Assembly (NCBI GenBank): GCA_050230475.1 | Contig: JBFLGF010000194.1 | Location: 1-60,954 of the forward strand | Origin: Ancylonema sp. | Taxonomy: Eukaryota | Reading direction: 5' to 3' | DNA: 60,954 nt | Part shown: positions 28,530 through 60,164 of the stretch, one piece after another | Numbering within the stretch: position 1 is the first letter of the stretch | How the letters are laid out: each line of letters starts with the position of its first letter | Notes under the pieces: model-generated | What the model was told of the DNA's origin: nothing | Databases searched by the model: none | The model's input: only the letters and a program-made list of their open reading frames with translations | Program-made: the position numbers and the translations under genes

Positions 28530-29728
28530 TAAGTCAATGCATGTCATCTTAAGATGGGCAGGTATTGAAATCCCAAAAAAAGGGCTTGTTCATGCGCTTT
28601 TCCTACAAATGTACCTACAAACGTAGCTCTAGCTTCCAAATCGAGGACATCTTGTCATGGAGTTTTAAGGTCCGTTTTGTCAATTGATGCTATCGAATGT
28701 AACATTGATCCCTCACACAATTAGGAGAGACCGTTCCACTGCTCACGGAAAAGTATGAGCATCGAATGGCAAAGAGCGTGATGGATGTAAACACTTCTTT
28801 TGATTGTGACACTCTTGCTCATTAACAAAAGCAATGTTTAGGACGGTGGCGTTAGCAGTGTAGTGGAGTAAAAGCGTTGTTGCTCAATGAAATATCATAA
28901 CACAATTTCAAATGAGTAACTATCCACTATTCTTGATCCATACTCTGCCAAGATGATATTTTTCTAATGTTTTATGTTTCCAAAAGTCCATATGTTGTAA
29001 AGAGGTTGGGGTATATTGACCTTGTCCCATGTCATGCTTTTATTATTCGGTTGAGTAGAGCCTTAGAAGTAAAGGAGTAACAAGTGAGCACAAATATATT
29101 GCCTTGCCGTGATTTAAGTATTCAGAATCCAAGCAAACATTTACTATCTCATGAAGTTCTCACATGGAATGATGAGTACATGGCTTTAATTGGTGTGGTG
29201 GTTGTATTGAATACATCAACACGGATTTTAGCAACCAAGTTGTAGCCATCATGGTATAGGAAACTAAGGGGTAGATTAAATTCAGCTTTGGTAATCGCAT
29301 CTACTAGTTTGTATGTAGTGATGTGATCATTATTGAGCTCCATGCACAAATCCGTACACATGCAATATGGTTGAATGAATAAATGAACTCATATGAAAAC
29401 CTATCACTTCAGTGAACATTGTTGTCAGCCTGAAGCAGAATCTATGAGAATCTGTGCAATAATATCTCCATGTGCTCAAAATGTGCACTAAAACCGGGTA
29501 TTCTTTTTCATTATCCCCCCTACAGGATTTTTTCTTCTTCTTCGGTCTTCTTCATCCACGGTCTGGGAACCTGTGGATCCTGGGAACGGATCCAGGTTCT
29601 GGTCGCAACCTGGGCCTCCCTCTGCAGCTTAGAATCCTGTTGCCACCCGTGTATAAAAACATGTCTTGCCGCTTTGTAAACATCTGTCTTCCATGCCGCT
29701 TACAATTCAGGTATGTACAACCGATCAT

Positions 29729-30402: not shown

Positions 30403-30556
30403 TGTCCCTCAGCGTCAACTGTGTGTCTTCGTAAGATCGTGAATGACTATATGACTGTTTTCGGCTGATGAGATGTTCAGTTTTTTGCGCGGGCTCTGGA
30501 TTTCCGAGAACGCACAACGGTACGTTGCACGTTGTTGTCGTTGTACGTTCTTCATT

Positions 30557-30648
30557 GATTGTTCGATTGTTCGATTGTTCGATTGGTCGGTCGTTCGGTT
30601 GTTCGGTTGTTCGGTTGTTCGTTTGTTCGATTGTTCGATTGTTCGATT
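30557..30648. repeat. 8-bp tandem repeat (gattgttc/ggttgttc) x11 upstream of CP12
   Basis: Directly visible; about 155 bp upstream of the CP12 ATG. Confidence 0.95.
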
Positions 30649-32769
30649 CAGCCTCAACTTTTACTTGGGAACAATCCAAGGCTGTGTTACCTCCCCACGC
30701 ACCGCGCGCTCCACTTTCTTGGCCGGAATGGCGTATCGCTGTTAGCTTTATTCAATACGGTCAGTTTGGTGATAATGATCATTGCATGAGCTGTTGTGTG
30801 TCATTTTCATCGGCTGCCGTATTTCACAAATTCAAACAAACTCATTCCGCATTCCTCGATTAAGTCAAATAGCATGTATTTACATATTTTATGCTGCCGT
30901 CAGCCAAGTATTGGCAATACTCAGCCTAAACGTTGGATCAACTTTGGCGCCGGTGGCTTTCTTACCGAGAGGTTGGGCACTACGGTTGAAATTATCGAGA
31001 GACCATTGCATGCTAGGGACGGCGCGATACATTGGTTTAGACATGAAGAAGGAGGCCATAGACGGGCCATCACAACGGGAGTGGCCACGCAGAATGCGGA
31101 AGTATAGGAGCCTTGAGCATTAGCAGGCCAGCACCTAAATACATTCCGTTCAATCAAAGGTACTTGACCCGGAAACTTCACTCTTGGGGCAGTAAGGGGA
31201 CTGTTCGCCAACATAGAAAGGTGGTGCATACTGCGGCTAGAGAGGGAAAGCGCAAGTTGGGAAGACTGGATGAGAATGGAGCAGCCTGGGCGAACATCAC
31301 TTGGATGGGTGAGGTTAGCATGTCAAGGGGGGGCCAAGATGTGCATGCAAGGGAAAAACCACAAGTGGTGAGTGTTGTGGTGAGGGTTGTTGGGGGGGTT
31401 GTGGGTGGGGTTGTGGGGAGAGTACCATATTAGGCAAAAGCATGTTCGCACCTAGGAGGGTGGTTAGGAGGTCTCCATTATGGATGGACAGAAGGATCGA
31501 GGAAACCGCAGAAACGTAAGGTGAAACGTTGTGGTCATAGGGAGGTGTGTATCACAATGGAGGGTGCGTTAAAAGAATCGATGATCGATGATCAATGTCA
31601 CAGAGTAATCGGCGGAGTTGCACCAATGTTTGCATTGGTTAGCAGAGACAGAACATGCTGAAGAGCAGTTGCAGCTGAAAATCGGAAGCTAGAAAAGAAT
31701 CCTAGGTGGCCCTGGTCAGAAAGAATGGCATGGGAAAACGACCAATGCGTTGGATGCTGCCTTCTCGGAGGAGGTGGCACCCGGGGAGTGCGTCACTTGG
31801 GATGGTGGGGGGGGCACGAGATGCAGGAAAGCAGACAGTATGAACCATGGGTAAGGGCTGTGGAGTTCTGCCCAGATGGGTGGTGGCAAAAGGCTGGAGG
31901 GGCTATTGAGCGGTGCAGACTATGCGATGCGGGCCAGTCGGGTCGGGCAGCCTCAAGGGTATGCCCACCAACAGATGGGTCCTCTGAGGGGTCTGGGGCT
32001 GTAGCCAAGTCAGCAAGTCATGTTGAGAAGGCTGGGGGGGGCTAAGGTAGCCGTCAGGTCAATGAGGGCAGTTGGGACGGCTAGAGGGGCTGGGGGAGGA
32101 GCCATGTCAGCAACATTAGATGGGTCAGTTGGGGGCCCAGGGGTGGCAGCGAGGTCATCAGGGTTCGGATGGAAGGCTGGAGGGGCCAGGGGGGGAAACG
32201 GGGTCAGCAAGTGTGGATGTGGTGGTTGAGAGGGCTGGGGGAGAAGTCAGATGAGCAAACAACAATGGTGCGGCTTGGGAGGCTGGGAAAGCGGGCGAGT
32301 GAGGAGAATGAGTTGGGGGTGGTAGCGTACTTGCCAGGCTGGTGAGGGCTTGCTGGTAAAGGATCAAGGATGGGATGTTGGAGAAAGAGGTGGAGACCGA
32401 ATACGAGATCATGGACCTGTATCCAAGTATCCGATCGAGAGTTGCCACAGCCGGAGCTGCAGTGATTCTCTTATCCTTCACTGAGTGTATGGGAATGACA
32501 GAAATGATGTAACTAGTCTCTGCAGTCTCATACCGCAGGCCAGATGCCAGCCTACATTGGCATGTGCAACCGGGAGTGCCTTTCACTGCAGCATGCAGGG
32601 AGGGCTCTCATGCATATGAAGTAGCGGAGTGCAAGGTATCCAAGAAAAATGACCCTTTTTCACACACCACAGAACACAAACGGCAGTTGGGCGATGATGT
32701 TTTCCACCACTTCCGATCCATATCTCCAGATCTCTCCAGATCTCTCCAGATCTCATTCAGAGGTTGCCC

Positions 32770-39300: not shown

Positions 39301-41202
39301 GACCATTAATTGTATCACAATAACACACCACTTCAGGGTTATTTTTCCTGACTTGATTTCTTAAGCTGTCTTGTTTGCTTCTGCGTAGCTTCCGCTTCAA
39401 CTGTATGGATTTTTCCATTTATATTGAATAGACGGTGAGAGCAGCATGACCAAATCAGATCATCAATTGAGACTGGCAAGCAAGCCTTGACTGGGCTTAG
39501 TATGAATGTCATCAACATGATTGATTCGCGCATGAAGCAGCTGCAGGCACGACTGCAGGCTGATTACTGTGTATGGGTGACTCGGGAACAGTATGTCGTT
39601 CACTCCTACCACAGATATAGGGCAAGTTAAAAATGCTGATTCCAGTAGCCCTAAGGTGACCTCTCAAGCCTGTTGCGAATTTTGAATTTTGAATTTCATA
39701 GTCATGACAAGCGGTGTAGACCCATTCTTGTTGCCTTCTACTTGTAGTCGGAGCACTACTATGCAGCAATGGCAGTAGATATGAGCACTGACCGTTCTGG
39801 CTCAGTTGGGAAATGTCTATGTTATTTACGTCTTGATACTGTAAACATTGCTTCAATTGACAGAGGTCCAACGTGTTTCTATTTTAAATCAGCAATTGTC
39901 CTATTGCTTTTGTGCTCATTGCAAACTAAAATTGAGGTACATCCTTTTGCGCTCTCTTCCCATCAGCGTCCTGCAGGTGACCGCAGGTGATCGCAATTGA
40001 CTAGTACTGATGCCATAAATGTATGTGCTGTCCAAGAAATTGTTTCGACCTACATGCGCTGTTTTCGGTTTCTTGTGGATCATCATCATGTATTGGTTGG
40101 TGTATGTGGAGCTGTCAAGACAAACTACCTCAGTCCATGTTGCACATTTTTAGTTCCACTCATTTTCCATCATCAATTAGTTCCGTAAAAAATGCCAACG
40201 GATATGATACACCACGTTCACAATGTCTTGTGACAATGTCCTATCAAATTGCAAGTGCACGTCACCATACTCACGACCCATTTCATTAGTTAAATTCAAG
40301 CCTACCATGAAAAAAGTGTAGAAAACAGTGCATGGACATGTTGTTGTTGTGGTTCATCAATAATCATGTTGTGTAGAAGAAGCATTGTTAATCGTGTTGT
40401 ACATAAATGAATAGATGTATCTATCGTCTAGAAAATCTATGTCGGTGCACTTTTTTTAGTTGCGCATGTTCAACACGAAGGGAAATTTAACATAGAAACG
40501 TTTAACTATCGAAGTGATATTTTGCGAATATTTTGAAATGTTAACTTATTATTGTTATTTTTGAGATTGTAGAACAAGGTTATTGGTACCTTTAAGATGA
40601 AGCTCCTAAAATATTTCGAATAAGGCTTAAATTCGAGTTAAAACAGTTAATTTTGAAACAACTACAAGTTTGCCTCATGCAAGATAGGTAATCGTTCACA
40701 TATAAAAGTTGCCTTAATATCAGCAACTCTAGTAAAAGAATAAGTTCCACAACAGAGCCCCAAAATGTACACAATGTATAATGCCATGTTTGACTGATTT
40801 TGTAAAAATACACATATTTTGGATAGGGTACAATTCCCAAAATAACAAACTCGTCAGTCAAATTGAAGGCCCAATGACGCACTTGTGGCTTTAAGCTTTA
40901 AACTTTAAGCTTCACATTTTTGCACACGCAAATATGAGGCATGGTCTTGGTGAGCCATCATGTGAAAGCATTGACAATACGATTAAATACTCCTCACGTG
41001 CACAATCGTTAAGGCACACGCACGTTACAGATATCAAAATTGTGTGTACCTACGTGTCACCGCCAAATTATCTTCGCTGTCGACACTCGCACACCACGTT
41101 ATGAGTGCCAAAAAAATGGCGATTTCCTGCCTAATGCAAGTCATGATGTCATACCATGTGTCAAATGTGCCGACTAGAAACGGGGTAAAAAATTGACAAA
41201 TA

Positions 41203-41237
<35 letters not shown>

Positions 41238-41963
41238 ATTAAATTATGAGAGTTGTCAATACGAATTCGCATTTATTTACATGCAAATCGGTCAATAGGT
41301 CGAAGTTGTATGAAGAAAAAAGTAACGACATCCCCGTATTGCAGGCAAAGTTTTAGATTTCCCTCCTTTCAGGCATGTTCGAAATAGGAAACATGCCTGG
41401 CACGCATATACACATTTTAGACATAGCCACGTTATAGGCACAAATTTCCCATGTCCAAAGGTGTGTGTTACTGATATATATACTCAACATATTTTCCTCA
41501 TGAAAATGCAAGAAAATTCGTACTTTGTAATAAATATATACATGAATCGCATTCACTTCAAATAAATGAAACATTCACTAAATTTTGTCAACATGTCGAT
41601 AAAATATATAAGCGAACGCAACACGTCTCTACGACAATTACACAACTATGTTATTTTTGTGAGGACCATACTTCCTCAAAAAATCAAAAAACATACGACG
41701 AACTCTATTCTACCCGGAGGCTCAAACCAGTCATTATATCTCATCTAAATCCACGGTGTTTGTACAACGTATTTCAACAATACTAGACTTAAAATATCAG
41801 CGGGGTCATATTCATCTCCACAAATATACATCATTGGGCGTCAGACCATATGTGTAAGGCCAATTCTATAGAGGTATGGCAAAAAAATCCTGACTTGCAT
41901 ACTTTTTGCCACTCCCTTATCCCCCATGGCAAAGGTAAAGACACCGGCTACATATGCCCTTGC

Positions 41964-42551
41964 TCAAGCAACCGCCGCATTTTTAAATGCTCGTACAAAC
42001 GCTTCAGGCGGTTGTGCACCGGACAGCTCAGTATCGCCAATCTGCCACAGCCACGAGATAGTCGGTTAAGAGAAAGACACACAAATGGCAAACTCACATC
42101 CATGCTCACAAATCTTAACTGCCAACGTCTCAAACCACAAGGATTTTTTTTCAACCGAAAAATCGGAATATAAATCGGAGATGGATTTGGAAATGAAGCA
42201 AACTGCTTCAGAGAATAAAAAGGCAACAATCACTCATCGTCACCAAAAATCCGCACCCAAAGATTCATGCTTGCCCGTAATGCCCGTAAAAAGTAATGAG
42301 TAAAAAGTTAAAAGTATGATGTATCAGTGTTCAAGAATAGACTCAATCTCCCTTCCAGATCCCCGTGCCACGAAACTCACCCAAAGGGCGTTTCAAAAAA
42401 ATCCATTGGTTCAAATACTCACCCCTTTCTCAGATCGCATTTCCAGATCGAATTGTCGTTTCCATGCGGAACATAAGTTTCAGTTTGAACTCTCTCTGAA
42501 GTGAGGCACCCCTCGCACCCCTTTTGCGTACTTCTGCACCGCTCCCATCAC
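41964..42551 (-). pseudogene. Partial duplicate (last two exons) of the DsbA/FrnE gene, copy A
   Basis: 42551-42495 encodes VMGAVQKYAKGVRGVPHFR with the donor changed from gtgagt to gagagt; 42041-41964 encodes IGDTELSGAQPPEAFVRAFKNAAVA*. Part of a diverged duplication, about 40035-42754 versus 45523-47714. Confidence 0.85.
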
Positions 42552-42863
42552 CTGCCACCCCACAGTCACCCGCCATAACCCCTACCAATCAATATTCCAT
42601 ACCAATAGGTTGCTCCCGCCAAACCATTACATCTCCATCGTTGATCCTTCTATCAGACAATCTCTCATTTTTTCTTGTGACCACTTTTGGTTAATTGTGC
42701 ACGACAGCCAATACTCCCTTGCTCCACGCGTCAAACCCATCATACCATCATACCATCTGTGTCGGGCACGTTACGTCCAGACCTATAGCAATCCCTTGCC
42801 ATAGGTAAACTTGCAAGGACCGAATTTTTCCCCTTTCGATTTTCAATCGAACTACAAAAAAAA

Positions 42864-43215
42864 ATGGATTCGGTCAACGCAGTCAAGCTGTACGATGGAG
42901 ATGGGGGGAATGCTCAGACAGAGTTCATTCTAGATTCTAAAGTTGGCTGGGAGCAGGTCGTTAACAACCCCAATCTCCACGTGACTGAAGGAGTGTCGCA
43001 ATATGAGTATTCGAAAACACTCCTGCCCAAACTCACAGGGCAAGCGAAGAAGCTGCTCACGCTGTACTTAAAAGAATGGGATTGGAGGATCCCCACAAAC
43101 CCCAACTTACACGCTGCGAGATTACGTGAGAGAGATCGCATGGTTTGGCGTGCGTTTTACAAGCAGCGAGCAGTGCATGACATCAGGGCGACTACTGTTG
43201 TCAAGCAACCACCAC
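42864..43215 (+). mobile_element. Truncated ORF, possibly the N-terminus of a retrotransposon gag
   Basis: ATG ORF MDSVNAVKLYDGDG..FI...LLPKLTGQAK resembles the gag capsid pattern (YDG..F / LxGxA). It is cut by the duplication boundary at 43216. Confidence 0.35.
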
Positions 43216-44582
43216 TGTATGAAGAAAAAAGTAACGACATCCCCGTATTGCAGGCAAAGTTTTAGATTTCCCTCCTTTCAGGCATGTTCGAAATAGGAAA
43301 CATGCCTGGCACGCATATACACATTTTAGACATAGCCACGTTATAGGCACAAATTTCCCATGTCCAAAGGTGTGTGTTACTGATATATATACTCAACATA
43401 TTTTCCTCATGAAAATGCAAGAAAATTCGTACTTTGTAATAAATATATACATGAATCGCATTCACTTCAAATAAATGAAACATTCACTAAATTTTGTCAA
43501 CATGTCGATAAAATATATAAGCGAACGCAACACGTCTCTACGACAATTACACAACTATGTTATTTTTGTGAGGACCATACTTCCTCAAAAAATCAAAAAA
43601 CATACGACGAACTCTATTCTACCCGGAGGCTCAAACCAGTCATTATATCTCATCTAAATCCACGGTGTTTGTACAACGTATTTCAACAATACTAGACTTA
43701 AAATATCAGCGGGGTCATATTCATCTCCACAAATATACATCATTGGGCGTCAGACCATATGTGTAAGGCCAATTCTATAGAGGTATGGCAAAAAAATCCT
43801 GACTTGCATACTTTTTGCCACTCCCTTATCCCCCATGGCAAAGGTAAAGACACCGGCTACATATGCCCTTGCTCAAGCAACCGCCGCATTTTTAAATGCT
43901 CGTACAAACGCTTCAGGCGGTTGTGCACCGGACAGCTCAGTATCGCCAATCTGCCACAGCCACGAGATAGTCGGTTAAGAGAAAGACACACAAATGGCAA
44001 ACTCACATCCATGCTCACAAATCTTAACTGCCAACGTCTCAAACCACAAGGATTTTTTTTCAACCGAAAAATCGGAATATAAATCGGAGATGGATTTGGA
44101 AATGAAGCAAACTGCTTCAGAGAATAAAAAGGCAACAATCACTCATCGTCACCAAAAATCCGCACCCAAAGATTCATGCTTGCCCGTAATGCCCGTAAAA
44201 AGTAATGAGTAAAAAGTTAAAAGTATGATGTATCAGTGTTCAAGAATAGACTCAATCTCCCTTCCAGATCCCCGTGCCACGAAACTCACCCAAAGGGCGT
44301 TTCAAAAAAATCCATTGGTTCAAATACTCACCCCTTTCTCAGATCGCATTTCCAGATCGAATTGTCGTTTCCATGCGGAACATAAGTTTCAGTTTGAACT
44401 CTCTCTGAAGTGAGGCACCCCTCGCACCCCTTTTGCGTACTTCTGCACCGCTCCCATCACCTGCCACCCCACAGTCACCCGCCATAACCCCTACCAATCA
44501 ATATTCCATACCAATAGGTTGCTCCCGCCAAACCATTACATCTCCATCGTTGATCCTTCTATCAGACAATCTCTCATTTTTT
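43216..44582. repeat. Apparently identical 1367-bp direct repeat of 41307-42673, including DsbA exon copy B (44460-44404, 43950-43873); ends at an assembly gap
   Basis: Constant offset of 1909 and identical ORF translations in the track. Terminates at n44583. Confidence 0.93.
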
Positions 44583-46924
44583 NACGTGTCCCTTGGAAGT
44601 CTTTGTCATTAGCGGCTCGAATAGAATCTAAGGCCGTAGTTATTACGAACGGAATGATTTTTTCGCCACCTACAGCACTATTAACGGCACTAAAGGCGGA
44701 CTGTACTGACAGCTGCATTACCAGGCGGCTCTTGGATAGTTTACAATTTCCATTTCAGCGCCTAGCAATAGTCACACCGCGTTAACGGCGCCGTACATAA
44801 TTCTGCGAGGATGCGACAAGGCACGAAAGGCAGATTTGTAACTTATGTGAGTACTGGTCAGTAGCTTCGAGCGTACAACACTACTACAGTACCCATTTAA
44901 ATTATACTCAGCTGCAGGGAAGGGTGTAACGACGTTTGTCCTAGTTTACTCGTCTATGAGTGGTTTAGCCCATAAGTCGATCAGTTGAGGTGGCTGAGCT
45001 AGCGCCGCAAGTAGATACGGAAGGATCGGTAGCTTCCTAGCTACTAGCATGATTGGTTTGCTGAGCACTGTACATTCTATAACCTTTGTGATCAGACCTT
45101 AATCGGTCATATCACACCTCGGGAACCTGAACAAATTACCTCAAATCTTTGTGTAATTTGTCTTTGTGTTCGGCTTGCATTCATTCTTTGTGAACTGCTT
45201 TCGGTTAACGATCGATTGTGCATCACATCACTATACAATTTACAAGATTCGGGCACTCTACGCCCAGGCCGACGGCAATGCCTTGCCATAGGTGTACTCG
45301 AAAATAATAGTTGGCATATGATGGACTTGCATAATGTTTGTATAATGCTTTATATTGTCGCGCACGTGTGTGTTGCGAACCTCGACTAGGTCATGATTCC
45401 ATGCGTAGACATTTCATGTGATGACATGAAACGCGATTCGCACGTGAAGTACACATTACAACAATGTTCGTTATAACGAATGATTCACATGTGGGAATGA
45501 GGCACGATGTCAAATGGTGCAACAAAACTATCTCGACCTACATGCTTTGTTGTTGGTTTCTTGTGTATCATCATCATGTACTACTTGGTGTTTATGCAGC
45601 TGTCAAAAAAATTTACCGTTCTTGTGTAAAAATTGCCAACATGTGTGATAGACCACGTTAACAATTTCTTGTGACAATGTCTTGTCACAATGTTTTGTGA
45701 CAATGTCCTGTCAAATTGCAAGTGCACATTACTGTACCCATGGCACATTACGATTGTTAAAACATAAGCCTACCATGAAATAAGTTTAGAAAACACAACA
45801 TGTACATGTTGTTGTGGTTTATGAAGAATCATGTTTTGTAGAAGAATCGTTGACACTTGTGTTGTATGTGAATGAATAGCGCGACTATAAAGCTGTGAAC
45901 TGCGCATTTTTGCACATATAGATGACGATTTGATAGATGAAGGGAAAAGTTGAGGAATAGTATAATATCATTGACAATACAATGAGTACTCGTTACAAGC
46001 ACACTCGTTGTAGGCACAACTGCGTTGTAGATACCAAAATCGTGCGAACCGATATTTCCCTGCCAAATCGTTTTTGTTATACGCACTACCACATCTTGTT
46101 ATGAGTACAAAGAAAATGGCGATTTTGTGTCTATGATGAGTTACGGTATCATAACAGGTGTCAACGTCAACTAATTACTCGGGAAGAAATCGACAAATAT
46201 TGTATATTTTTGATGATAATATAAATCTGTATTTATTCAAGCGTATATCGGCCATAAAGTCGAAAGTACCAAAAAAAATGAACCGACATGGCAGACAATG
46301 TTTCAGTGCTGAAGGAATTTAGTCAGATTTCCTTCGTTACAGGTATGTTTGACTAAGTAAACATACTTTTAGGGTATATGCACGTTTCAAACACAACCAT
46401 AATGTTGGCACAATTTTCCCATGTCCCAAAGGTGTGTGTATAACGAGTATTTACTGTACAAACTTTCCTCTTGAAAATGCAAAAGAATTTTTGCTTTGTA
46501 ATATACACATGAGTCGCATTTCCTTCATCTAAATGATGCATTCACAACATTTTATCAACATACTGATAAAGATAGGGAACGCAACACATTTCCACGAAAA
46601 TTGCACAACTGTGTTATTTCTTTGGGGACCATACTTATCCAAAAAATCAAAAACGTACGACGAACTATATTCTACCCAAAGGCCCAAACTAGTTATGGTA
46701 TCTAGTCCAAATCCACGGTGTATGTACAATGTATTTCAACAATACTAGACTTAAATATCAGCCAGGTCAAATTCATCTCCACAAATGCATATTATTGGGT
46801 GGTAAACTATGTGTATAAAACAATCTTTGTAGAGGAGCGTCCAACAAAACCTGACTTGCATGCTTTTTACCACTCCCTTATCCCCCATGGCAAAGGCAAA
46901 GGCAACGGCTAGATATGCCCTTGC

Positions 46925-49705
46925 TCAAGCGGCCGCCGCATTTTTGAATGCTCGTACAAATGCTACGGGCGGTTGTGCGCCGGATAACTCAGTATCGCCA
47001 ATCTGCCACGGTCAAGGGATAGAAGATTAAGAGAAAGGCAAACAAATGGCAAACTCACATCAAACGTCACAAATCTTAACTGCCAACTAGTCAAAGCACC
47101 AAAGTTTTGTTTCAACCAAACTATCGGAATATGAATCGGAAATAAAATTGGAAATGAAATAATCTGCTTTAGAATTGAGTAAAAGTAGCCGACGCGTCAC
47201 TCATCATCACCAAAAATTTACACCCAAAGATTCATGCTTGTTCGTAAATCACCAAAAAAAAAGTAAAAAGTAAAAAGTATGATAAATTAGTGTTCAAGAA
47301 TCAACTCAATCTCCCATCCTCCACATGATACAAAACTCACCCGAAGGGCATTTCAACAAATTCCATTTGCTCAAATACTCATCCCTTTCTCAGATCGCAT
47401 TGACAAAGCGAGTTCTCATTTCCATGCGGAATGTAAGTTTCAGTTTGGACTCACTCTAAAATGAGGCACCCCTCGCACCCCTTTTGCATACTTCTGCACC
47501 GCTTCCATCACCTGCCCACCCCATAGTCACCCACCGTAAACCCTATCGATCAATATTTCACACCAATTGGTAGCTCCTGCCACATGAGTATACCTAAATC
47601 GTCAATCCTTCTATTAAACAATCTCTCATTTTTTCTTGTGACCTCTATTGGTTAATCGTCGATGCAGGGGTGCACTCCCTTGCTTCACGCGTCGTACCCG
47701 TCATACCATCATACCCTTGTTACAACAAACATATCTTCGCTACGAGAACACTCTTCCAAATACAAGGACGAAAATCGCACAATATAATGAACTAGTGCCA
47801 ACTAATTGTGACTAATATTTATTTCCTATCTTGATGTTACCCTCACACATACATTCAAACCTCACCTCTGGCAGCCCAGCATTCGGATCATCCAGCCATG
47901 CCTCCGCCCCATCCACCCCAACCTTCTGAGCAGCCGCTACCAGCACCTCCCTGAACCCACACGCCAACAAAGGGCGATCGTCAATTTTTCATTCCCTCTT
48001 TCCGTTTATAACAAAAAGCGAGTCGCCACAAACCAACCAATGCGTCGTAGCCATTATACATCCCAAACGAAATTTATGTCTTACAAACAGCTGCCACCAG
48101 AAATGCATATCCTCCCATCCCCTCTCTCACATTTACCTCCCCTGACACCTCGATTGAGATGTTTCCCCTTCTTCCCCTCTCTATAGGCACACCGGTGTGA
48201 GCCTCTCACCTGTCTCCAAGGTACTTCTCCTGAGTGAAGTAGTTCAGAAATAGCTCCTCTACCAAAGCATTCTGTTTCACCACACCTTGTCGTCCCGCAA
48301 GTTCCAAAAGACGATGGCTGTCCACAGTACTGCCACTGGGGGGGGCGAAGGAGGCAAAAAGATTGGAAGCAAGATTGTGAACAAGGGAAGTGAGGAGGCG
48401 CATCGCAGCAGCCATGTCTCCGGTGTACAACCAAAGTTTGAGAATAGATCTTGTTGGTCAAAACGGACGGTCAAGAAAGGTGTTGCACTCTCGAGGACAT
48501 GAAATTCGCGTCAGAGATAATTCGACTTTAGTCGACTATGCACACCGACCGATGAAGTGAATAGTGTGAAACACAACAGCAAGGACTCTTTTACTATGTA
48601 TTGTCATCATCGCCAAATCGATTGCATCATTAATATCGCGAATTTCCGATACTTATATCATTCACTATCAATACCATATACCATACAATCATCACCATTG
48701 ACACCAATCACTACGTCGCTGGTTCTCATCTGATCGACTGCCATACCAAACAATCACAGACAGACACACACGGCCACAAGATTCCGGAAAGACCCCTCAC
48801 GTGTTTCCCCCCATCCTGTACTCCTGCCCATGCCCCGCAAACAGCGCCTTCATGTCTGCCACCATGGACTCCACCCTCGCCTTCCCAAACTTGTGGTTAT
48901 AGTATGCCGCCTTGTTTTCACCCTTCTTGGGAGCTTCAGGGTTGAGGAAGAAGGGGTGCCACCGCACCTGTGTGCATGCGTAGGTGTGGAGATACATAAA
49001 CATGTAAGATGGGAGACTGAGAAAATAGACGGCACAGGCATGATACTTCTGGGCGGAATTGCACTAAAATCTTACCAAGTAAGCGCACTCAAGTGCGGAT
49101 AAGATGTTGCAAACACAATTTCGCATATCTCGTCCCATAATCCGTCTGATCTCCGAGCCATGATGTTTGAGGCACACACTGCTCTACATAGCCAGGAGCA
49201 CTGTCTTCGCTGAGAATCGTTTCCCTTCCACCACTGCCAGTCCACATCTTTTTTGCTCTCACACGAGAGCGCACCGACCTGTACGTCGTACTTGTCTTTC
49301 ACCTCCTCTATCGCCCGCTCGATGTTCTTCTTGCCCACGTAACACCACGGGCAAACCGTGTCTGACGTCACATCCACCTGGATGCTCGGTTTCGCCGCTG
49401 CCATGTGGCCTACACTGAAGGTCCTCGGGGCCACTGCCAGCTGGATCGCGCTCTTCAAGGCTGCACAAAAGGAATCAAATAACGGTTGGTACAGGATGGA
49501 TGAAGGAGTGCAATGATAGTACAAGTCGCTGGTGATATCCGTAGCCTAAATTCGATGTCTCTGTACAGGTCTGCGACTTTCTATCAGATCATTGGTTTCT
49601 ATGTCTGTCGGTGTCGTAACATTGAACGACTCGCACCATAGTCTGTGTACTACGCCACCTCCGACCTTTCAGCGTGGCAGATGAACGAATTGCAGGAGGA
49701 AACAT
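46925..49705 (-). CDS. DsbA/FrnE-family thioredoxin-fold protein (multi-exon)
   Basis: Exons 49460-49279 (VTSDTVCPWCYVGKK, ATG 49404), 48967-48801 (VRWHPFFLNP), 48335-48210 (DSHRLL), 47950-47866, 47511-47455 (GVRGVPHF, cis-Pro loop) and 47002-46925 (LSGAQPP). An in-phase upstream exon 49705-49666 is probable. Confidence 0.88.
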
Positions 49706-50535
49706 TCGAGGAGCAGCACGTGAAAGGAACCTGTCTGCACCTGCGTCAGCATTCAGCAACTCATGTTTCTATTCGGTGACGTGGCTTCCTCAGTCTGCAT
49801 CTCCTTGCATCACGTGGAGGACTGCATGGAAGGCGAAAAGCGCTCCTTCCCAATAGGTGGGCGGAAGGTTCGGACGTTCCTTCGTAGCGCAGAGTCAGCT
49901 TGCAGCCATACGGACCACTCCATCCTGATCTGGGAAAAACGAACCAAAACCAAAAGCGTCAAATAACCGCGCACTATTACGTTAACTTTGGCCGAACTAA
50001 CTAACACTTCATTATTATACAAATATGTTGCTGAATCTCCCACACCATGCATTGTACCTAGTTGCAATATTGATGTACATAACGTAGACATTGTAATACT
50101 TGGCTAGGGATGCATTAGCCTAGATGTCGATGCGGCCGCCTAGCGGCGCCGCAAAGAAGATGCTCATCCGATAGGATCATAACCAAATTGATGACTATAT
50201 AACTTGTACAACTTGTTCTAAGACCTTAACAGGTCTTTGTAGTCCTCGTGAACCGTTGATAAATTCTTGACTTATAATATAGTGTGTTGAGTATTTTATC
50301 GTGTTTCGGCTGACAATTACCAATCTCGCATACTTCTATATCAAGTGTGAATTTGCATTTGCATTTACCACACTAGTTCGGGCACCTTATGTTAAGTCCG
50401 ACATGCATTGTCTTGCCTTAGGAAACTAGAAATACATATTTGTCATATTGTATACGCATATGAGATGCTTGCAAGTGATGTATGATATCTCGCACGTGTG
50501 TAAGGCGGACCATGGCTATGTCCCGACGCTATGTG

Positions 50536-50847
50536 TGTTAGGACCACTCTCTCTAGTCACTAGTGTTCCTATAGCGAGTACTCCTAACCCGCACTTGTGT
50601 GCTTCTAGTCTAGTGTTCTGTTGTGGCTTTAGTCTATTGTTCAGTTGTGCTTTTAGACTAGTGCTTCTAGTTCTCTTATTAGTGTGTTGAGTGTTTATGT
50701 TTCATTTAGTATATAGCCGTGTTAGGAGCTACACTTCATTTGCTCCTAAAAACTCATGTTACTACTTCTACTTATTAATAGTGCATTTATTATTACTTCC
50801 ACTTGTGCTTTTATGTAAGTGCGCTTTCTTCATATCGCGCCATTACA
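50536..50847 (+). mobile_element. Solo LTR (312 bp) with 5-bp TSD ATGTG
   Basis: atgtg|tgttaggaccac...cattaca|atgtg. The uninterrupted site (ctatgtgggtacatcca) is seen in the family R copy at about 20466. The first 12 nt equal those of the chromovirus 5' LTR. Confidence 0.9.
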
Positions 50848-50862
50848 ATGTGGGTACATCCA

Positions 50863-53042
50863 ACATGGAATATTTTATGTAACCCCTTCCCAAAGATGTG
50901 TCAGAAGCTTTAACTTCACTTTGCAAAATCTTCTCAATTACTGCAAAGGCTTGATAATGAGGATCCACATCATCATTATTGTCAAACTTCGGAGCGACAT
51001 CCTTTTAAAAATAGTTAGAAATACGATTGTGGTGGTGTGTAAATCGTGTAGATGTTTTTATGCCAGTAGACACATCGTTGGTGTCATTACGTTGTTGTTG
51101 CGCGTACAAGAAAGCACCTAACCAACGCATTGTGTTCCCATCCATTGCTTGTCCCAGTCGTGAAATTCGTTGCTAAATTGTTGCATGTCCTCCAGTGGTA
51201 TCACCAATGTTATATCCCATTAGTTGTTCCTTTTCCTCAAGTGTTGGTTCTTCCCAACACTTTGTATTCCAAAGTTTTCCTTCTCCTGGTTTTCCACTAG
51301 CTTGCAATCTGTAAGCATGGCTTTTTGGAAAACTTACGATTGTTGGCATGCAAACCCCGTTGTGATTAACTTTGTTGTGTGCAACAAACGGAGAACTGGA
51401 AAGTCGAGAAGGCTTGGTTGGGACATGATGTTTGTGTAAAATTTGTTGCAATGTCGGATTTGGGAGAATATTTTTCGGCATTGCTTCTTGTAAAATTTTA
51501 GGATTACACCAGTTTTGCCAAAACAATCTCACACGATGTGCTGCTGATCCCAATCCAGCAGCGTCAACAACAATTGGAGCACCCAAGAAAGCTTCTATGA
51601 GTTTTGCAGCCTTGTCAACATTGGGATATTGTCCTGGTTTCCCAAGCCATGTATTTTCAAACAAGTACAATGGCGATGGGTATTGTTCGGCTTGGAAAAA
51701 AAACATTTTTTTTACCATGTCAAGGAATGGAGCAAATCTGTCATCATTTATGCCTTCATGCTTTCCAGCCATAGACATGGATTGGCATTCCCATCCCCCA
51801 CAAATTGAAATGTACCACTCCCTTGGATTCAACCAAATCCACCAAGTCAGATTGTGAGACAATTTGAATGTTTTGGGGTAATCTCTTATTATATCCGCGA
51901 TTATATCCGCGTATCGCGCTGTCAGGTAGTTGTCCTGGAAACTCTCTCAGGACTTCTCTAGCTATTGTACGAGAGATTTCATCTATCTCAATACTCGTAT
52001 AGCACTTGATTTTGTAACCACCTTCTAGAATAGTTCGTAATCCTCCACATGTTATTCCCGAAAACATGTCTAGAACGTGTATCCCGCCTTTTATTGTATC
52101 TGGAACAAATTTAGTAGTGTGTGTAGCAACTGAAATTGCACCATTGAAATCATCTCCTATCCACTTTATACGTGGCTCTAACACGGGAAGCCCTAACGCG
52201 TAGGTTGCCTCAAGTCGTGCTCCAGCGTTACTCCTCCTGTCAACAATCGTTTTGTGTGTGGAGTTGTGGTTTGATTTCATCATATGCGCAGTTATTGGAA
52301 TACAAGTGGCAGTCATAGGAGCTGTGTTAGCTGTTGTTTCCATGTTCACATTATAATCAAAATTCTATTGTAAAGATTCATCACCAAGAATTGCATCTTG
52401 TAAATCTGAAGAGCATGTTGTTACCTTGATTGTGTAAGCAATGTGGTGATCTTCTGCAATTCCACAACACGTGGCTGGCAGTCTTGCAAGACGAGATGGT
52501 ACCGCTTTTGTTTCACGACAGTCCACCCTCCATAAGAAGTCCTCTGTTAAAGGGTCCAGATACCCAAAAATCGCACCCAAGAAGTCCATCCCGAGAAGGA
52601 CGTCGTACGTGTCGGTATCGGCGATCATCGCATGAGACTTAATCGTAGTCTCCTCTGAAGTGCCCTTGGCAAGGGTGAATTCTAGAAATTTTTTTGTCCT
52701 GCCCAATGCTAGTGTGTCCTGTCCGGCGGCCGTGACGAACGAATCCCCAAAAGCGAGATACTTGTTTTGACATCTGTCAATAGAGTTTGCAAAAGATCGG
52801 CCCAAGATGATTGTACCTGCTCCAGTGTCAATTACTGCCACACGCGGTGTTCTTCCATCCACTTGCAGCTGCCCCTCCGAGGTGAGTAATGTTGCCATAT
52901 AGAATTTCATCCGATGCCGCCTCTGCGCCACACGGTATTTCTCCGCGATCATGTTGCCTTCGTTCAATTGCTGCACCACTTGTACTTGTATCGGAGCCTT
53001 CTCTTCGTCTGCCTTGGCTCTGTCGAAAAGGATGGCCATCAA
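50863..53042 (-). mobile_element. Decayed retroelement fragment A: aspartic protease plus C5 DNA methyltransferase in one frame
   Basis: Protease AVIDTGA (52829-52821)...YDVLLGMDFL. In the same frame after a TAG come DNMT motif I VLDMFSG, a 1-nt frameshift near 51806, IV CGGWECQ, VI YLFENT, VIII AHRVRLFWQN, IX EKEQLMGY and, after another TAG, X RISRLGQAMDG. Confidence 0.85.
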
Positions 53043-53527
53043 TGTTAGGACCACACTAGTGTGTGTCCCTAACTAGAGTGTAGCCCGCTACTCCGCCCGA
53101 CCGGGCGGGTGACCATTTAGTTTCGCTTAACTCGTTTCGCTTAACTTTTATTTCTTAGCTTTCAAGTTTTCGTACACTTAGTCATCATTACAACCCCGAC
53201 GTTATTTCCGTTAACATATTCGTTCGTTTAGCTCGCTTCATTAGTTACCGTTCTTACACTAGAGTTCCCTTCGTCCCTAGTTCACCATTTACCACTTATG
53301 CACGATAAGAACGTCTATTCTCTCGTTCTTATCAACTCATGTTAATTGTGATCTTTTAAGTGCTTCTCTTCCCATTCTTTTTTCCGTCACTCGTCCCTCT
53401 TTCCTTTCCCATCCATTTTCTTCTCTCCATTCAATCCTCTCCTCCTATTCCCTTCTTTCCTTCCAATCCTCCCTTAAATTCTCCTTTCTCATTCCTCTCT
53501 CTATCCGCACTAAGTCCAATTCTTACA
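53043..53527 (+). repeat. 5' LTR of the chromovirus
   Basis: tgttaggaccacactagtg...cactaagtccaattcttaca; homologous to 57572-58032. Confidence 0.92.
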
Positions 53528-54737
53528 CTTTGATAAGAAAATTAATTTGTTTTGGTTTTTTGGGACAATTTAAGCATGGCTTCGTTCGACGCGAGCGAAG
53601 CTCAAGCGGAGCAAGTGGGCCGCGTGGCATCTTTGGAGAACAACATGGGGGGTGTAATGGCTGAACTTCATAGATTGCGAACGGCGGTGGCACAAAATGT
53701 TCAAAATGCTCAAAATGTTCCATTACAACAAAATGCTCCACAATATGTTCCCCCCCCTCCCCCTCGTCCTAATCTAAACCTTCCCGAACCTCCTCACTTC
53801 TCGGGAAACCCATCTGAACTACCATCATTCAAATTAAAATTATCTCAATTCCTTCGGGGAAATTTTAATTTTAATACCTACTTTGACTCTCAGTCGCAAC
53901 TCATGTATGCAGGCAGCCTCCTAACCAGGGATGCCGACGAGTGGTACATGACTCTCGTCGACCAAAACTACAACCTACCCCCCCACTACGACTACGACCT
54001 CGACTCCTTCCTTCAAGCCATGACGGACTTCGGACTTCTTCGGGGGGGGCATCACCCTCGCCTCCCGCGAACGCTCCCTGGATACCCTGCGCCAAACCGG
54101 GACGGTTCAGCAATTATTAGCAATTGCATTTCAGAATATTACGAACACCCCTTCAACCCCCGGTGGACAAGATCACTCCCTCATTTACGTTCTGTCGAAG
54201 AAGATCCGGGAACCCATCCGCTTCGAGCTCGCCGCCCGGGGAACGGTCCCTATCCTCTTCCACGACTACGTTGCCGCCGCCATCTCGGTGGAACAGAACC
54301 AGGCAGCTGCAAACAACTTCAGGGGCCAACCACAACCCCAGCTTCCCCGTCTCCCCTACAAGCCCCCACCAGCCCTCCCTGCCCCGGCTCCCCGTCCCAA
54401 CCCCCCCCCGCCCACGTTTCCATGGATCTGGACGGCATGCGCGCCCGTAATGGTGGCGCCCTTTCCCACGAAGAGCGTCGCCGCCGAGCTGAAGGCAACC
54501 TCTGCGCCTATTGCGGCCAGCCAGGTCACATCATCACTACCTGTTTGCGGCGCAACGGGGGTCACCAGGCCAGGGGTATCTTTCCAGTTCCCCCCGGTTA
54601 CCCGTCAGACGCCGGTTATCACCCCCCCCCCGGTTTTCAATTAATATTAATTCCCTTACCTGGCACCTTTCCCACCCCCTGGACGCAAGTCCCCACCCCC
54701 CATACCCAGTTTGAAACCTACCTGCCTCAGACGCGTC

Positions 54738-54775
54738 AAAAAACGCTCGCCCCAGCCAATAGGGGCCTGGCTGGG
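54738..54775 (+). promoter_or_regulatory. Putative -1 programmed ribosomal frameshift signal at the gag/pol junction
   Basis: Slippery A AAA AAC (54738-54744), then gcccc/ggggc and agcca/tggct pairings. The zero frame reads SKNARPSQ*. Confidence 0.7.
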
Positions 54776-57571
54776 TGGCGTACTTCCCCTCCCCTCCCCC
54801 CTTAGCCGCCCCTGTCATGTTTGTAAAACGTCCAGACGGCAAGCTGAGGTTAGTTGTGGACTACCGAGGCCTCAACAAGGTCACTGTCAAGAATCTGTAC
54901 CCCCTCCCCCTCATACCTGAGATGCTGGATCGATTACATCGCGCTAAAATCTTCACAAAAATAGATCGACGCAATGCATATCATCAAGTTCGGGTTAAAG
55001 AAGGGGATGAGTGGAAGACGGCATTCAGATGCAGGGAGGGGCAGTATGAGTATTGTGTGTGCCCGCAGGGCCCTACTAACGCACCTGCAATGTTCCAGCA
55101 TTTTATGAATGATATCCTACGGGAGCGCCTGCATCTGGACCTTACCGCAGTCGGCATTCTTGATGATGTTATCATCTTCTCCGAAGACCCTGCCCTGCAC
55201 ACACAGCATGTTCGCGCCATCCTCCAGATCCTGCGCGAAAACAAACTCTACGCAAAGGTGGAAAAGTGTGATTTCGACAAAGACCACATGACTTACGTCG
55301 GTTATATGGTCTCCAAGGATGGAATCGGCATGGATCCCGCAAAGGTATCTGCTATCCTCGACTGGCCTGTTCCCGTTAAGGAGGTGCAGTCTTTTTTGGG
55401 CTTTGCTAATTTTTATCGAAAATTCATTTTACACTATTCTGCTCTTGCTACCCCCCTTACAACTCTGACTCGCAAGGGAGTGAAATTTACAAGGAACTGC
55501 AACATTCCTCCAGCTCCAGTCAGCCTTCACATTTGCCCCCATCCTTTGCCACTTCCAGCCCGAGCTCCCTCTGACTATCGAGGCTGATGCTTCCGACTAC
55601 GCCCTGGGGTGCATCCTGTCCCAACCTGCATCTGATGTGGAGCTACACCCGATCTGCTTCTATTCACGAACATTTACAGCTGCTGAGCTGAACTACCCCA
55701 TCTACCACAAAGAGCTCCTCGCGGTGGTCGAAGGTTTTAGGCAGTGGAGAGTCTACGTCGAAGGAGCGCAACACCCTGTCCAGGTCTACACCGACCACAA
55801 GAACCGGAGTATTTCTCCCAGGCCCGCACTACCTCCCGACGACATGCCAGATGGGCAGCTACTCTGGCAGCCCACGACTACACCATCAGCTACAGGAAGG
55901 GCGCCTCCAATGGCAAACCGGATGCCCTCTCCCGCCGTCCCGACTACATCCCTCCCCGCCTTCCCTCCCTCCCCATCTTTCCCCATTCATATCCCATTCT
56001 TAATTCCCCTCCCACCTCATCGAAGCAGCAGTTCTAGTCATGCCGAACGATCCTCTCCTGCCTGCCATCGCTGATGCCCAAGCCGCGGATCCTGTCCTGT
56101 CTGCACACATACACTTGCTGCAGAGGGGGCCTGGCGGGGAGTCAAACCCCGCACTGCCAGGAGGCAGCCCATCGGGCAGGTCACAAGATCCTGTCTACAC
56201 TCTTTGCGGCGGCATCCTCTACTCTCAGGGACGCATTCTCATTCCTCCTACCTCTTCCTCACTCATCCTTCAAATTCTGCAACAATATCATGACTCGCCA
56301 CTAGCTGGCCATTTCGGTGTCGCACGCACTCAAGCTCTAATTGCAAAGTATTTCAAGTGGCCAGGTTTAGCTACAACTGTTAGTAATTATGTTCTAAGTT
56401 GTGATGCATGCCAGCGCAATAAAGTTGGCATCCCTGTGGCCTGCTCTCACCCCTCCCTATCCCTGTCAAACCGTGGTGTAGTGTATCCCTCGATTGGATA
56501 ACCGACCTGCCTCCTAGTCACTACCACGACGCGATTCTAGTGGTCGTCGATCGCCTCACCAAGAGATGGCGCATTTCAGTCCAACCACCAAATCCATGTC
56601 GGCGCCAGACGTCGCGGCGCTCTTCATCCAGCACATCATCAGGGTTCATGGCCTCCCAGAAACCCTGGTCAACGACACCCGGTCTTCACCTCCCACTTCT
56701 GGGGAAGACTCCTCGAACTTCTGGGCATCCGAGCCAACCGATCGTCCGCCTTCCATCCCCAGACAGATGGCCAGACAGAAAGGCTCAACTCCGTCCTCGA
56801 GCAGTACCTGCGAATCTACTGCGATTACCAGCAGACCGACTGGGGGCCAGCCTCCTCCCCATGGCGGAATTCTCCTACAACAACTCCAAACACTCGGCTA
56901 CCACCCTATCCCCATTCTTTGCCAACTATGGCTTCCATCCCCGCATGTCCCTGCTCCCTCCATCCCCCGACTCCGCGACCCCAGCAGCCGACTCCTACGT
57001 GGCGCAACTTCGGAAAATCCAGACAACTCTTCAGACCGAGCTCCTCAAGGCCAGGAAAGCTATGGAGTTGTCCGCCAATCGGAGGCGTCGGCCGGCACCA
57101 GATTTCATACCAGGACAAAGTTTGGCTCCTGCGCCGACACATTTCGACCACGCGTCCGTCGTCTAAATTGGATGTTCGTCGCCTTGGCCCTTTTCCAATC
57201 ATTGAGAAAGTTGGCACTTCGGCTTTTCGCCTCGATCTTCCCCGCTCAATGCGGATCCACCCTGTTTTCCACGTCAGCCTTTTGGAACCTCATGTGGCCA
57301 ACACTTTTTTCCTGGTCGCAACGTGGCCCCTCCCCCTCCCCTCCATGCGGATGGTCTTCCAGAGTTCGAGGTGAACAAGATTCTGGACTCCAAGTTCCTG
57401 AGGCGCAAGCTACATTACTACGTCGATTGGGTTGGCTACCCCGTTTCGGACCAATCGTGGCAAACCTGCAATTAACTTGTTTAATGCTCAGTCAAAAGTC
57501 GATGCTTTTCTTCATTTAGAATTTCCATTATAGCCTCGTCCTCTTGTAATCTCCACTTAACGGGGGGGTAC

Positions 57572-58032
57572 TGTTAGGACTACACTAGTGTGTGTCCCTA
57601 ACTAGAGTGTAGCGCGCTACTCCGCCCGACCGGGCGGGTGACCATTTAGTTTCGCTTAACCCGTTTCGCTTAACTTTCGTTTCGCTTAACTTTCGTTTCG
57701 CTTAGCTTTCAAGTTTTCGTACACTTAGTCATCATTACAACCCCGACGTTATTTCCGTTAACATATTCGTTCGCTTCGCTCGCTTCATTAGTTACCGTCT
57801 TACACTAGAGTTCCCTTCGTCCCTACACCATTTAGTACTTATGCACGATAAGAACGTCTATTCTCTCGTTCTTATCAACTCATGTAAGTGACTTTTAAGT
57901 GCTTCCTTTCCCAATCTTTCCCGTCACTCGTGTTCCCTTTTCCATCTATTTCTCCCATTCATTCTTCTCTCAATTCCCTCCTTCTCAATTCTCTCTCATT
58001 TTCCATTATCCGCACTAAGTACATTCCTTACA
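57572..58032 (+). repeat. 3' LTR of the chromovirus
   Basis: Follows the PPT; tgttaggactacactagtg...cactaagtacattccttaca. Confidence 0.92.
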
Positions 58033-60164
58033 TTCCTCCCACTCTAGGCTGACAGTGTTGAACACCTCCCCCTCTCTTGGGTTCCCATATTCCTTTGGGC
58101 GGAAGGCGTTGGAGTGAAGGTAGGATACCACCGTTGACATGCAGATGCGCGCCCCACCCTGTTGATTGTGAGTCGCAAACGGAAGCCGATCAGAATGCCC
58201 AGGAGATGTGGGCACGTGATGAGGCTTCAGAATGGACGACAATGGCGGGGAGGGGAGGAGCATTCTTGGCATTGCAGCTTTCAGGATGGCCGGCTGGAGC
58301 ATGTTGGTCCAGAAAAGTCTCACTCGATGCGCGGCTGCTCCCAGATCCGCAGCGTCGATGAGTAGAGGTGCCCCGAGAAAAGATTGCACCAGGTTGTTTG
58401 CCTTCTGAATTGCTGCCGTGCATCGCTCACCAGGATACGTGGTCTCCAGCAGGTACACAAGGGGGATGGCCTGCCTCTGCTAGAAAAAGTTGGTGATGCG
58501 GACCAGGTCGTAGAAGAAGCGAAAACGGGAATGCATTGCGCCGCGCTGTCTTCCTGCCCTGCTGACGCTCTGACACTCCCAGCTGCCACCTAGCAGATCC
58601 ACTGGGCCGTTGAATTCGAGTAGTCTCTCCAGAAACATCAGCGAGCATTGAGAGATGTCTTGAGGCAGCCTCTTGTCGAATGATTTTATCGCTGCGTCTG
58701 GTAGTTGGGCGGGGTATTGTAGTTGGAGAGTGGTTAAGACTGAGCGCGCAATGTCATGGCTGATATTGTCCTTATCCACATATGTGTAGCAGCGTATGCT
58801 GTACCCTGCAACCAGTGCTGATCTTAACACTCCCAATCCCACTCCCGCAAACAACTCCATGACATGAAGCCCATTTTTGCATGACGTTTGGCTCAATTGT
58901 ACTGTTGATGTGTCCAATGGCAAAGCCCCCAAGATTGCACAACCCAGCCATTTGGATGATGGGAGCAGGGGTGGAAGGGAAAGAGGGGTAACGGATGAAA
59001 GCCGAGCTGCGGCATTTTCCCTTCGCAGCCGGTCGTCACCCCTCACCTCCTTCCCAATCCGCAGCTCGTTCTCCCGATCGCACACCTCCACACCAGAGCA
59101 GGTTGGCAGCTGCTAGCTAGAGTGGTGAGGTATGGAAACCGAAATCATCTTCTTCTAAGATCACGTCTTCAAAGCCACTCTGTACCTCATGCATGTCCTT
59201 CTCGTTGTCGATCAGGCCAGCAAAGCAGGCGTAGGCCACGACTGGCCGTGTGACGCCGTGGCAGGGTGCGTTGATGGTAGAGGAGCGTAGATGTCCACCA
59301 GCATCCATAGCTCGATATGTAAACCGCTCCGTGTATGAGCAGTAGCTCCCCTTCACCGCGCGGATAAACTCCATTCCCAGCAACACGTCGTAGGCGACCG
59401 TATCGACGACTGTAACTGCCATTTCCACTACAGAGAAGTTGTCACTACCATGGCCAAGGTTGAACTTCAACTTGGTTTTGGTGATCTCTAGAGGGAGCTC
59501 TACTGCCCCACTAGCAGTGACAAAAGCCTCTCCCCTATGCAACCGGCGCATGTCCACTCCTATGGCAGCTGCAAACTTTGCACTGCACATGGCCTTGGCT
59601 GCTCCTGTGTCGATGATGGCCTCTTTTGGGACGTAGCCCTCCACGTTCAGCATCATTGCGGCGTTATCCAGATACACCGGCGTGAAATGCACCAGTAATA
59701 GATCTGCGATAGAGATGGCGGGGACCAGCTCCTCTTCCACGGCTGGAAAGTGCTGGTTGGGGAAGCTCTTCTCCGTGTCTGTCGCCTTGTGCCACAAACT
59801 GCATGCCAGCTCTCCCGTCAGCTCCTGCACATTCTTGACAACGTCTTGCAGGTGGGACACAGCTTGGAGTGGCGTCTCCAACAGCAGCTCTGGACCGTCT
59901 CCTACCGGCGGGTCAGGAAAGAGGTATGTAGGCGGGTACTGTTGATCCGTTGTCCCTGGCTCCAAGCTGGATGGTGGCATGCCGTGTGGGAAGGATTGTG
60001 GCAGACGTTCTTTGTAGTCATCCTCGTCCGGAACTCTAGGCACATCTGGGTAGACTGAGTCATCAGGCGTGGCTAAAAGGGGGTCATTTTGGATCGGCTC
60101 TGAGATAGGGGCAGCTGCCACGTCTCCAACAAGCGGAGCAAAATGTACCCTTTTAGCTGGCGCC
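58033..60164 (-). mobile_element. Decayed retroelement fragment B: aspartic protease plus C5 DNA methyltransferase, cut by the chromovirus LTR before motif IX
   Basis: Protease AIIDTGA (59611-59603)...YDVLLGMEFI; DNMT motif I VMELFAG, IV LGGSWECQ, VI YLLETT, VIII AHRVRLFWTN. Colinear with fragment A. The 5' side ends at gap n60165. Confidence 0.85.

Follow-up and report, generated by a model that had tools for sequence, protein, structure and literature searches.

The window, a stretch of 60,954 nt of Ancylonema sp. DNA (positions 1 to 60,954 of contig JBFLGF010000194.1, assembly GCA_050230475.1), contains fragments of two families of Ty3/Gypsy-type retroelements in which a DNA methyltransferase (DNMT) of the DNMT3 type directly follows the protease (PR). 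The fragments, copies A and B, are both dead and neither can work. The enzyme of the two families is read as likely methylating the element's fresh complementary DNA (cDNA) in the virus-like particle. We give this reading, with A and B as dead fragments of such elements, a probability of about 0.8.

Copies A and B and their methyltransferase

Copy A corresponds to residues ~82-810 of the 1845-aa relative P0021 and its downstream end, by tblastn, is in the spacer before the reverse transcriptase (RT) (Table 1). Homology stopped at 50882 instead of 50863, the endpoint given in an earlier reading of this DNA (the original prediction). Copy A carries one frameshift and three in-frame stops. The DNMT reading frame shifts immediately ahead of motif IV and meets a stop ahead of motif X. 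The protease motifs were IDTGA (52832) and YDVLLGMDF (52607) and the linker motifs were RRSNAGARL (52238) and PRIKWIG (52175). In the DNMT, motifs I, IV and VI were DMFSG (52070), GWECQS (51796) and FENT (51661), followed by motifs VIII (AHRVRLFWQN, 51541) and X (RLGQAMDG, 51160).

Copy B corresponds to residues ~438-1130 of the 1183-aa relative P0073. Upstream it runs into an assembly gap (one N, at 60165), and downstream it is truncated by a long terminal repeat (LTR). One frameshift and two in-frame stops were found. The DNMT has one stop and is truncated ahead of motifs IX-X. The protease motifs were IDTGA (59614) and YDVLLGMEF (59392), the linker motifs RRENAAARL (59025) and PSSKWLG (58962), and the DNMT motifs ELFAG (58857), SWECQS (58584), LETT (58449) and AHRVRLFWTN (58332). 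Motif VI reads ETT where relatives have ENT, a change peculiar to copy B which is probably decay. B-like contigs ran beyond 58033 in four of four runs and by eye read in frame into motif IX.

Table 1. Coordinates of retroelement features and bordering repeats in the window (RH, RNase H; IN, integrase; bit scores are given with the curated cut-off).
Feature	Position	Strand	Description
Copy A	50882..53042	-	Middle part of a gag-PR-DNMT-RT-RH-IN-PHD element, decayed; tblastn 55%/65% over two frames; 59% in read-through
Copy A retroviral-type aspartic protease (DTG)	52575..52871	-	PF13975, E 2.9e-7, 31.4 bits (cut-off 28.2)
Copy A DNMT3-type C5 methyltransferase	51095..52085	-	Motifs I-X, canonical order
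Copy B	58033..60163	-	Decayed piece of a gag-PR-DNMT-stop element; tblastn 51%/65%
Copy B retroviral-type aspartic protease (DTG)	59360..59650	-	PF13975, E 9.5e-8, 33.0 bits (cut-off 28.2)
Copy B DNMT3-type methyltransferase	58033..58866	-	Motifs I-VIII; PF00145, E 5.1e-5, 23.3 bits (cut-off 22)
Central element	53043..58032	+	Decayed chromodomain-bearing Ty3/Gypsy element; Pfam domains gag-like, RT, RNase H, integrase, SH3 and chromo
5' LTR of central element	53043..53527	+	TGTT...TTACA
3' LTR of central element	57572..58032	+	Preceded by a G-run purine tract
Solo LTR	50536..50847	+	73% to central element; perfect 5-bp target-site duplication ATGTG
Non-coding repeat	50045..50862	.	79% to 19982-20482, solo LTR set aside; replaces the RT-coding part downstream of A

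The series of protease, linker and C5 methyltransferase motifs claimed in the original prediction is present in both fragments, with every named motif in its place. Pfam searches of the broken pieces gave a mixed outcome. PF13975 passed in both copies and PF00145 passed in the B piece, while the C-terminal piece of the broken copy A fell under the cut-off of 22 for PF00145 (E 0.0036, 17.2 bits). A profile built from 12 relatives scored copy A at 807 bits and copy B at 630 bits. Reversed copy A scored -2.6 bits and no match was reported for reversed copy B.

The broken copies were read through with X at the breaks, giving 721 positions for A and 702 for B. In this form A was 59% identical to P0021 over 729 columns. 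The A and B proteins were 37% identical over 552 columns (E 1e-101). As DNA they shared one 49-bp match only, in line with the claimed divergence; B has a GC content of 55%, and A, described as AT-rich, is only mildly so (43% GC). In a tree of 24 rows, used for placing A and B and testing groupings, both fell inside one radiation (support 100/100). A was nearest P0021/P0002 (96/98) and B grouped with P0073 and P0014 (100/100). A sister relationship of the copies was rejected (approximately unbiased test, p-AU 2e-5). The trees thus bear out the claim that two families are represented.

The assignment of the domain to the DNMT3 type also held. Against solved structures the family profile matched DNMT3A first (E 1e-25), then DNMT3B/C, DRM (6e-18 to 3e-15) and M.HhaI (1e-9), and no DNMT1 was among the 55 matches. 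With a smaller first profile DNMT3A and M.HhaI were almost tied. The predicted model of the relative P0004 (predicted local distance difference test score 87.8) had DNMT3A/B/C in all 34 rows listed (best E 8e-17, target template modelling score 0.79). The motif order in A and B is not rearranged as in DRM. Judged by profile and predicted model, the domain has a DNMT3 fold.

The positions of the catalytic Cys, the motif VI Glu and the motif VIII Arg were invariant or near-invariant across 63 relatives, and motifs IX-X were conserved in the same set. The catalytic motif of both copies is WEC and not PC, which the original prediction did not mention. Decay of the window copies was rejected as its origin, the trait being family-wide.

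Relatives of the two families and the short form

A search with the DNMT half of A returned 17 proteins among 610 candidates. The best full-length relatives were the ENA records P0021, P0002, P0006 and P0040, each a single open reading frame (ORF) with protease, DNMT, RT, RNase H and integrase. A C-terminal PHD finger was present in P0021, P0002 and P0006; P0040 ends within the integrase and has a gag-like N-terminus. The closest relatives were 57-59% identical to A, and in P0021 and P0002 all six domains from protease to PHD finger were found by Pfam. In A relatives the DNMT shares an intronless ORF with RT and RNase H in Gypsy order; the window copy is truncated before RT. As read from these proteins, the DNMT of the A family forms part of a complete Pol that also holds RT, RNase H, integrase and a PHD finger. 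Among the four full-length relatives protein identity was 83-89% for RT, 74-80% for integrase, 64-75% for DNMT, 53-69% for protease and 40-52% for the linker. Retention of the DNMT fits selection, as gauged by protein identity and not by Ka/Ks.

The best matches to B were P0073, P0074 and P0015 (58%) and P0014 (53%), all gag-protease-DNMT ORFs. P0073, P0074, P0015, P0079 and P0014 end at the last residue of the DNMT, with no RT or RNase H in the ORF. P0073 is an intact gag-protease ORF with zinc knuckle, protease and DNMT in 1183 aa. The radiation of Pol polyproteins proposed in the original prediction is supported for the A family, with full Pol in its relatives, and not supported for B, whose closest relatives' ORF ends at the DNMT. 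In 38 of 42 hand-picked proteins the end was at most 2 residues from the DNMT domain, the exceptions being P0119, P0003, P0004 and P0007. The 38 short ORFs include a second lineage in the radiation, the C lineage (P0054, P0061, P0011-P0013), and a group with the Klebsormidium nitens protein P0096. Holding all short forms together, a group chosen after viewing an earlier tree, was rejected (p-AU 0.015). With short forms in separate tree positions, the short form either evolved on two or more occasions or reflects a stop that is an ancient ORF boundary.

We put at about even odds that the B family is a non-autonomous element supplying Gag, protease and DNMT, with RT and integrase borrowed from A-type elements. 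A broader proposal is held tentatively. In it, B would be one of a class of non-autonomous retroelements in which RT, RNase H and integrase were repeatedly lost while an intact gag-protease-DNMT3 ORF was kept, with two lineages in this radiation and more in Klebsormidium. The class would sit within a DNMT3/PHD Gypsy radiation that spans the green lineage, numbers hundreds of families and places the DNMT at either of two positions in Pol.

It is also quite possible, at somewhat under even odds, that the B family is autonomous. A second ORF, entered by frameshift, read-through or splicing, would then encode RT, RNase H and integrase, the stop being a gag-PR-DNMT / pol boundary. The contigs leave room for such an ORF (6.9-8.6 kb for P0054/P0061 and 8.6-11 kb for P0097-P0100). 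A stop at the same residue across many families fits a conserved recoding site, and in the tree of the radiation the short ORF is basal. However, the short C lineage was nested among full-length single-ORF elements (100/100, 24-row tree), which suggests loss; the B lineage was their sister. Published K. nitens elements have the DNMT in the RT ORF, whereas the short K. nitens P0096 does not. DNA of a relative was not recovered from the viral, metagenome and prokaryote collections searched. In viral contigs none of four pattern matches for P0015 was confirmed, and an alignment query gave 12 loci, all distant (23-52% over short stretches). In metagenome contigs 38 loci were found, all short distant matches, and the search of prokaryote genomes gave 0 of 35.

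The family profile gave 440 clusters at 50% identity (E<=1e-30). Domains were placed in the best 150 representatives using home-made hidden Markov models. The DNMT was after RT/RNase H or before integrase in 77, after protease or before RT in 19, and alone in 54; protease, RT, RNase H or integrase stood beside it in 96. In the RT tree the after-RNase H elements were on one side of a branch (support 92), and the DNMT tree had the same split with weak support (59). The DNMT tree used 133 of 168 rows, with 34 DNMT-only representatives and one short outgroup dropped, and its outgroup was six ORFs from metagenome and viral contig loci.

Named members were from K. nitens, Closterium (P0106/P0107), Marchantia polymorpha (P0108 MARPO_0204s0011 and P0110 MARPO_0020s0163) and Haematococcus lacustris (P0085). 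Named database proteins thus extend retroelement DNMT3 to a liverwort, a chlorophyte and a further zygnematophyte. Haematococcus and most long representatives have the DNMT between RNase H and integrase. P0086 and P0084, both RT-RH-DNMT-IN-PHD polyproteins, show by eye hydrophobic segments of membrane-like character ahead of RT. For the DNMT of one relative, the closest Atlas cluster was mostly Streptophyta, which is a lead only.

Layout of the locus and its surroundings

Copies A and B are separated by an unrelated chromodomain-bearing Ty3/Gypsy element, which cuts both, with RT, RNase H, integrase and chromodomain between two LTRs. No DNMT or protease match was found by Pfam in the six ORFs of this central element that were scanned. 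Its RT and integrase were rejected as part of A or B. They are on the opposite strand, and the RT was 37% identical to the P0021 RT region and reached no more than 39% identity with any one of 57 RT rows taken from elements that carry a DNMT. The original prediction was right that no RT or integrase of A or B is visible in the window.

The ends of the central element (4990 bases) coincide exactly with the upstream break of A and the downstream break of B, which leaves recombination of two insertions or an assembly join of two loci by way of the repeat. An assembly join through a very high-copy repeat seems to us possible although on the doubtful side, and it would touch the B-Gypsy-A layout only, not the identity of A and B. 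In its favor, the flanks of the central element have no target-site duplication (ATCAA and TTCCT) and its LTRs, 93.7% identical outside gaps (415 matches), differ by 28 substitutions and 60 gap columns. Two single-N joins are nearby, one beside a 1367-bp 100% duplicate, and no contig bridging 58032/58033 was among the matches listed. Recombination between LTR elements at two sites would however look identical, a clean target-site duplication flanks the solo LTR of this lineage nearby, and rare variants are dropped by short-read contigs.

The solo LTR sits within the repeat bordering A, and a paralogous repeat near 20470 shows the empty site. It was rejected as the direct cutter of A since it lies in this neighboring repeat. 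Read data had A-like and B-like sequence deeply covered relative to the flanking host gene, depth here being summed contig depth and not a copy number. One ice metagenome covered 26 of 30 bins of the window, flanking host gene included. Besides one organism's own data, the stretch occurred in ice, glacier and unlabelled metagenomes, and we take the host to be probably a streptophyte alga and possibly a zygnematophyte of glacier ice.

A gag N-terminal fragment at 42867-43262 (+) was 39% identical to the start of P0073 (E 2e-23) and is truncated by a duplicated block. From this similarity it is a third trace of the DNMT element radiation. A 1.8-kb non-coding repeat lies ahead of it (40969-42754, again at 45969-47715, 76% identity). 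A 45-bp block directly upstream of gag (42762-42806) recurs before the second repeat copy (45249-45293) and at ~50378-50432. Together, repeat and block may represent the terminal repeat, long or split, of the DNMT elements. Further repeat-associated coordinates around the fragment are 40037-40414 and 45525-45879. The 1367-bp duplicate (41307-42673 and 43216-44582, 100% identical) ends at a single N at 44583 and is likely an assembly artefact at a scaffold join.

Host genes of the window are compact, intron-containing and eukaryotic (INTS3, MFS, aldehyde dehydrogenase, DUF92, cytidylyltransferase, DSBA). Integrator subunit 3 (INTS3) is a single uninterrupted 968-codon ORF at 11514-14420 (-) in an otherwise intron-rich region; in the Atlas it matched INTS3 clusters of several phyla. 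Three exact 59-bp tandem copies (3404-3582) and an 8-bp microsatellite array (30551-30653) were observed. Two inverted-repeat pairs, at 5269-6404 (173 nt at 75%) and 28064-28530 (38 nt at 97%), may be elements resembling miniature inverted-repeat transposable elements. Rfam gave no matches in 38000-60954.

Proposed action, known systems and meaning

In the proposed mechanism the polyprotein would be packaged with Gag and processed by the protease. The DNMT would then methylate cytosines of the cDNA inside the virus-like particle before integration, following the cDNA model of de Mendoza et al. 2018 (PMC5890265). The target would probably be CG, by analogy with SymbioDIRS-Dnmt3. The PHD finger on the integrase may read histone tails at the target. 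A new insertion would arrive pre-methylated and so may resemble host DNA or be self-dampened.

The nearest described system is KnitGypsy-Dnmt3 of K. nitens, a Gypsy-type element with a DNMT3-type domain in the Pol ORF (PMC5890265). It resembles the A family in its intronless, non-rearranged DNMT3-type domain, its Pol ORF, its streptophyte Gypsy-type host element and its many diverged copies. The PHD finger, C-terminal here, is unmentioned in the text and three supplements of that paper. The B family differs in that its ORF stops after the DNMT. P0096 (KFL_013780020), a protein of K. nitens, shares the order gag-PR-DNMT and grouped, only at support 80 in a FastTree without host DNMT3, with the broad after-protease set. 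The family here is only 23-25% identical to P0096, and it reads WEC in place of FPC. By these protein comparisons the A family is of the KnitGypsy-Dnmt3 kind, and B is a relative of that kind and not a full member. What may be new relative to the known kind is the short gag-PR-DNMT form; the kind of the A family is already published (PMC5890265).

SymbioDIRS-Dnmt3 also has DNMT3 in a retroelement Pol and is the sole case with shown activity (CG methylation in yeast; PMC5890265). It is a dinoflagellate DIRS element with a tyrosine recombinase, in contrast to the DDE integrase and aspartic protease here. TR-GAG and other non-autonomous LTR elements with only gag and protease (PMC13570524) are like the B family ORF in having no RT, RNase H or integrase. 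The B family ORF has a conserved DNMT in addition, and is known here from ORFs and not from terminal repeats. EpiLTRs (bioRxiv 10.64898/2026.05.21.726589) are LTR elements that likewise join a DNA methyltransferase to a chromatin reader. They carry DAM, a DNMT4-related enzyme and a chromodomain, and the preprint sets them apart from streptophyte Gypsy-DNMT3. In the accessible text of PMC12344493, PMC6338049, PMC13570524 and that preprint, streptophyte transposon DNMT3 is cited solely through PMC5890265. Literature mostly outside subscription journals held no description of the short form, the two DNMT positions or members outside Klebsormidium; the figures or main supplement of PMC5890265 may already show the PHD finger or short form.

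Several points weigh against methylation of cDNA by these elements. DNMT activity of the family is a prediction from sequence and model. In A, B and 58 of the 150 representatives, Glu takes the place of the Pro that precedes the catalytic Cys. The KnitGypsy-Dnmt3 domain gave no methylation in yeast, a result which its authors call inconclusive (PMC5890265). B relatives have no RT in the ORF, so co-translation of DNMT and RT fails for the B family. For neither family does the window hold an intact copy, an LTR or a target-site duplication, and the relatives are ENA proteins without DNA context. The DNMT trees contain no host DNMT3 and so do not identify the donor.

Some of these points would also fit a domain kept as a DNA- or SAM (S-adenosylmethionine)-binding module or decoy with no catalysis. 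PC is EC or QC in the A/B radiation, and the yeast result points the same way. We consider this unlikely given the conserved Cys, Glu, Arg and motifs IX-X of the 63 relatives; PC versions are also interspersed, with WPC kept in at least 39 of the 150 representatives and P0013 inside the C lineage. Descent of A and B, as pseudogenes, from a protease-DNMT gene domesticated by the host would account for the missing RT, integrase and LTR but is highly improbable, as both are intronless amid an intron-rich host region, many diverged copies are present in reads, and gag zinc knuckles or RT, RNase H and integrase share the ORF in relatives, with P0021 and P0002 largely refuting it.

Transposons are normally silenced by cytosine methylation, and since 2018 it has been asked why some of them encode a methyltransferase themselves. 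The single streptophyte enzyme tested was silent in yeast. The window adds no working copy and points to intact relatives suited to assay. The kind is far wider than the single alga described in the literature available. Such copies inflate DNMT3 counts in green-lineage gene annotations. If elements with only gag, protease and DNMT are non-autonomous, their DNMT has to work in the particle or on the insertion without relying on fusion to RT. This would run counter to the published view that the DNMT works by sharing the RT ORF. If the class of B is non-autonomous, a hitch-hiking element would gain more from a methyltransferase than from replication enzymes of its own.

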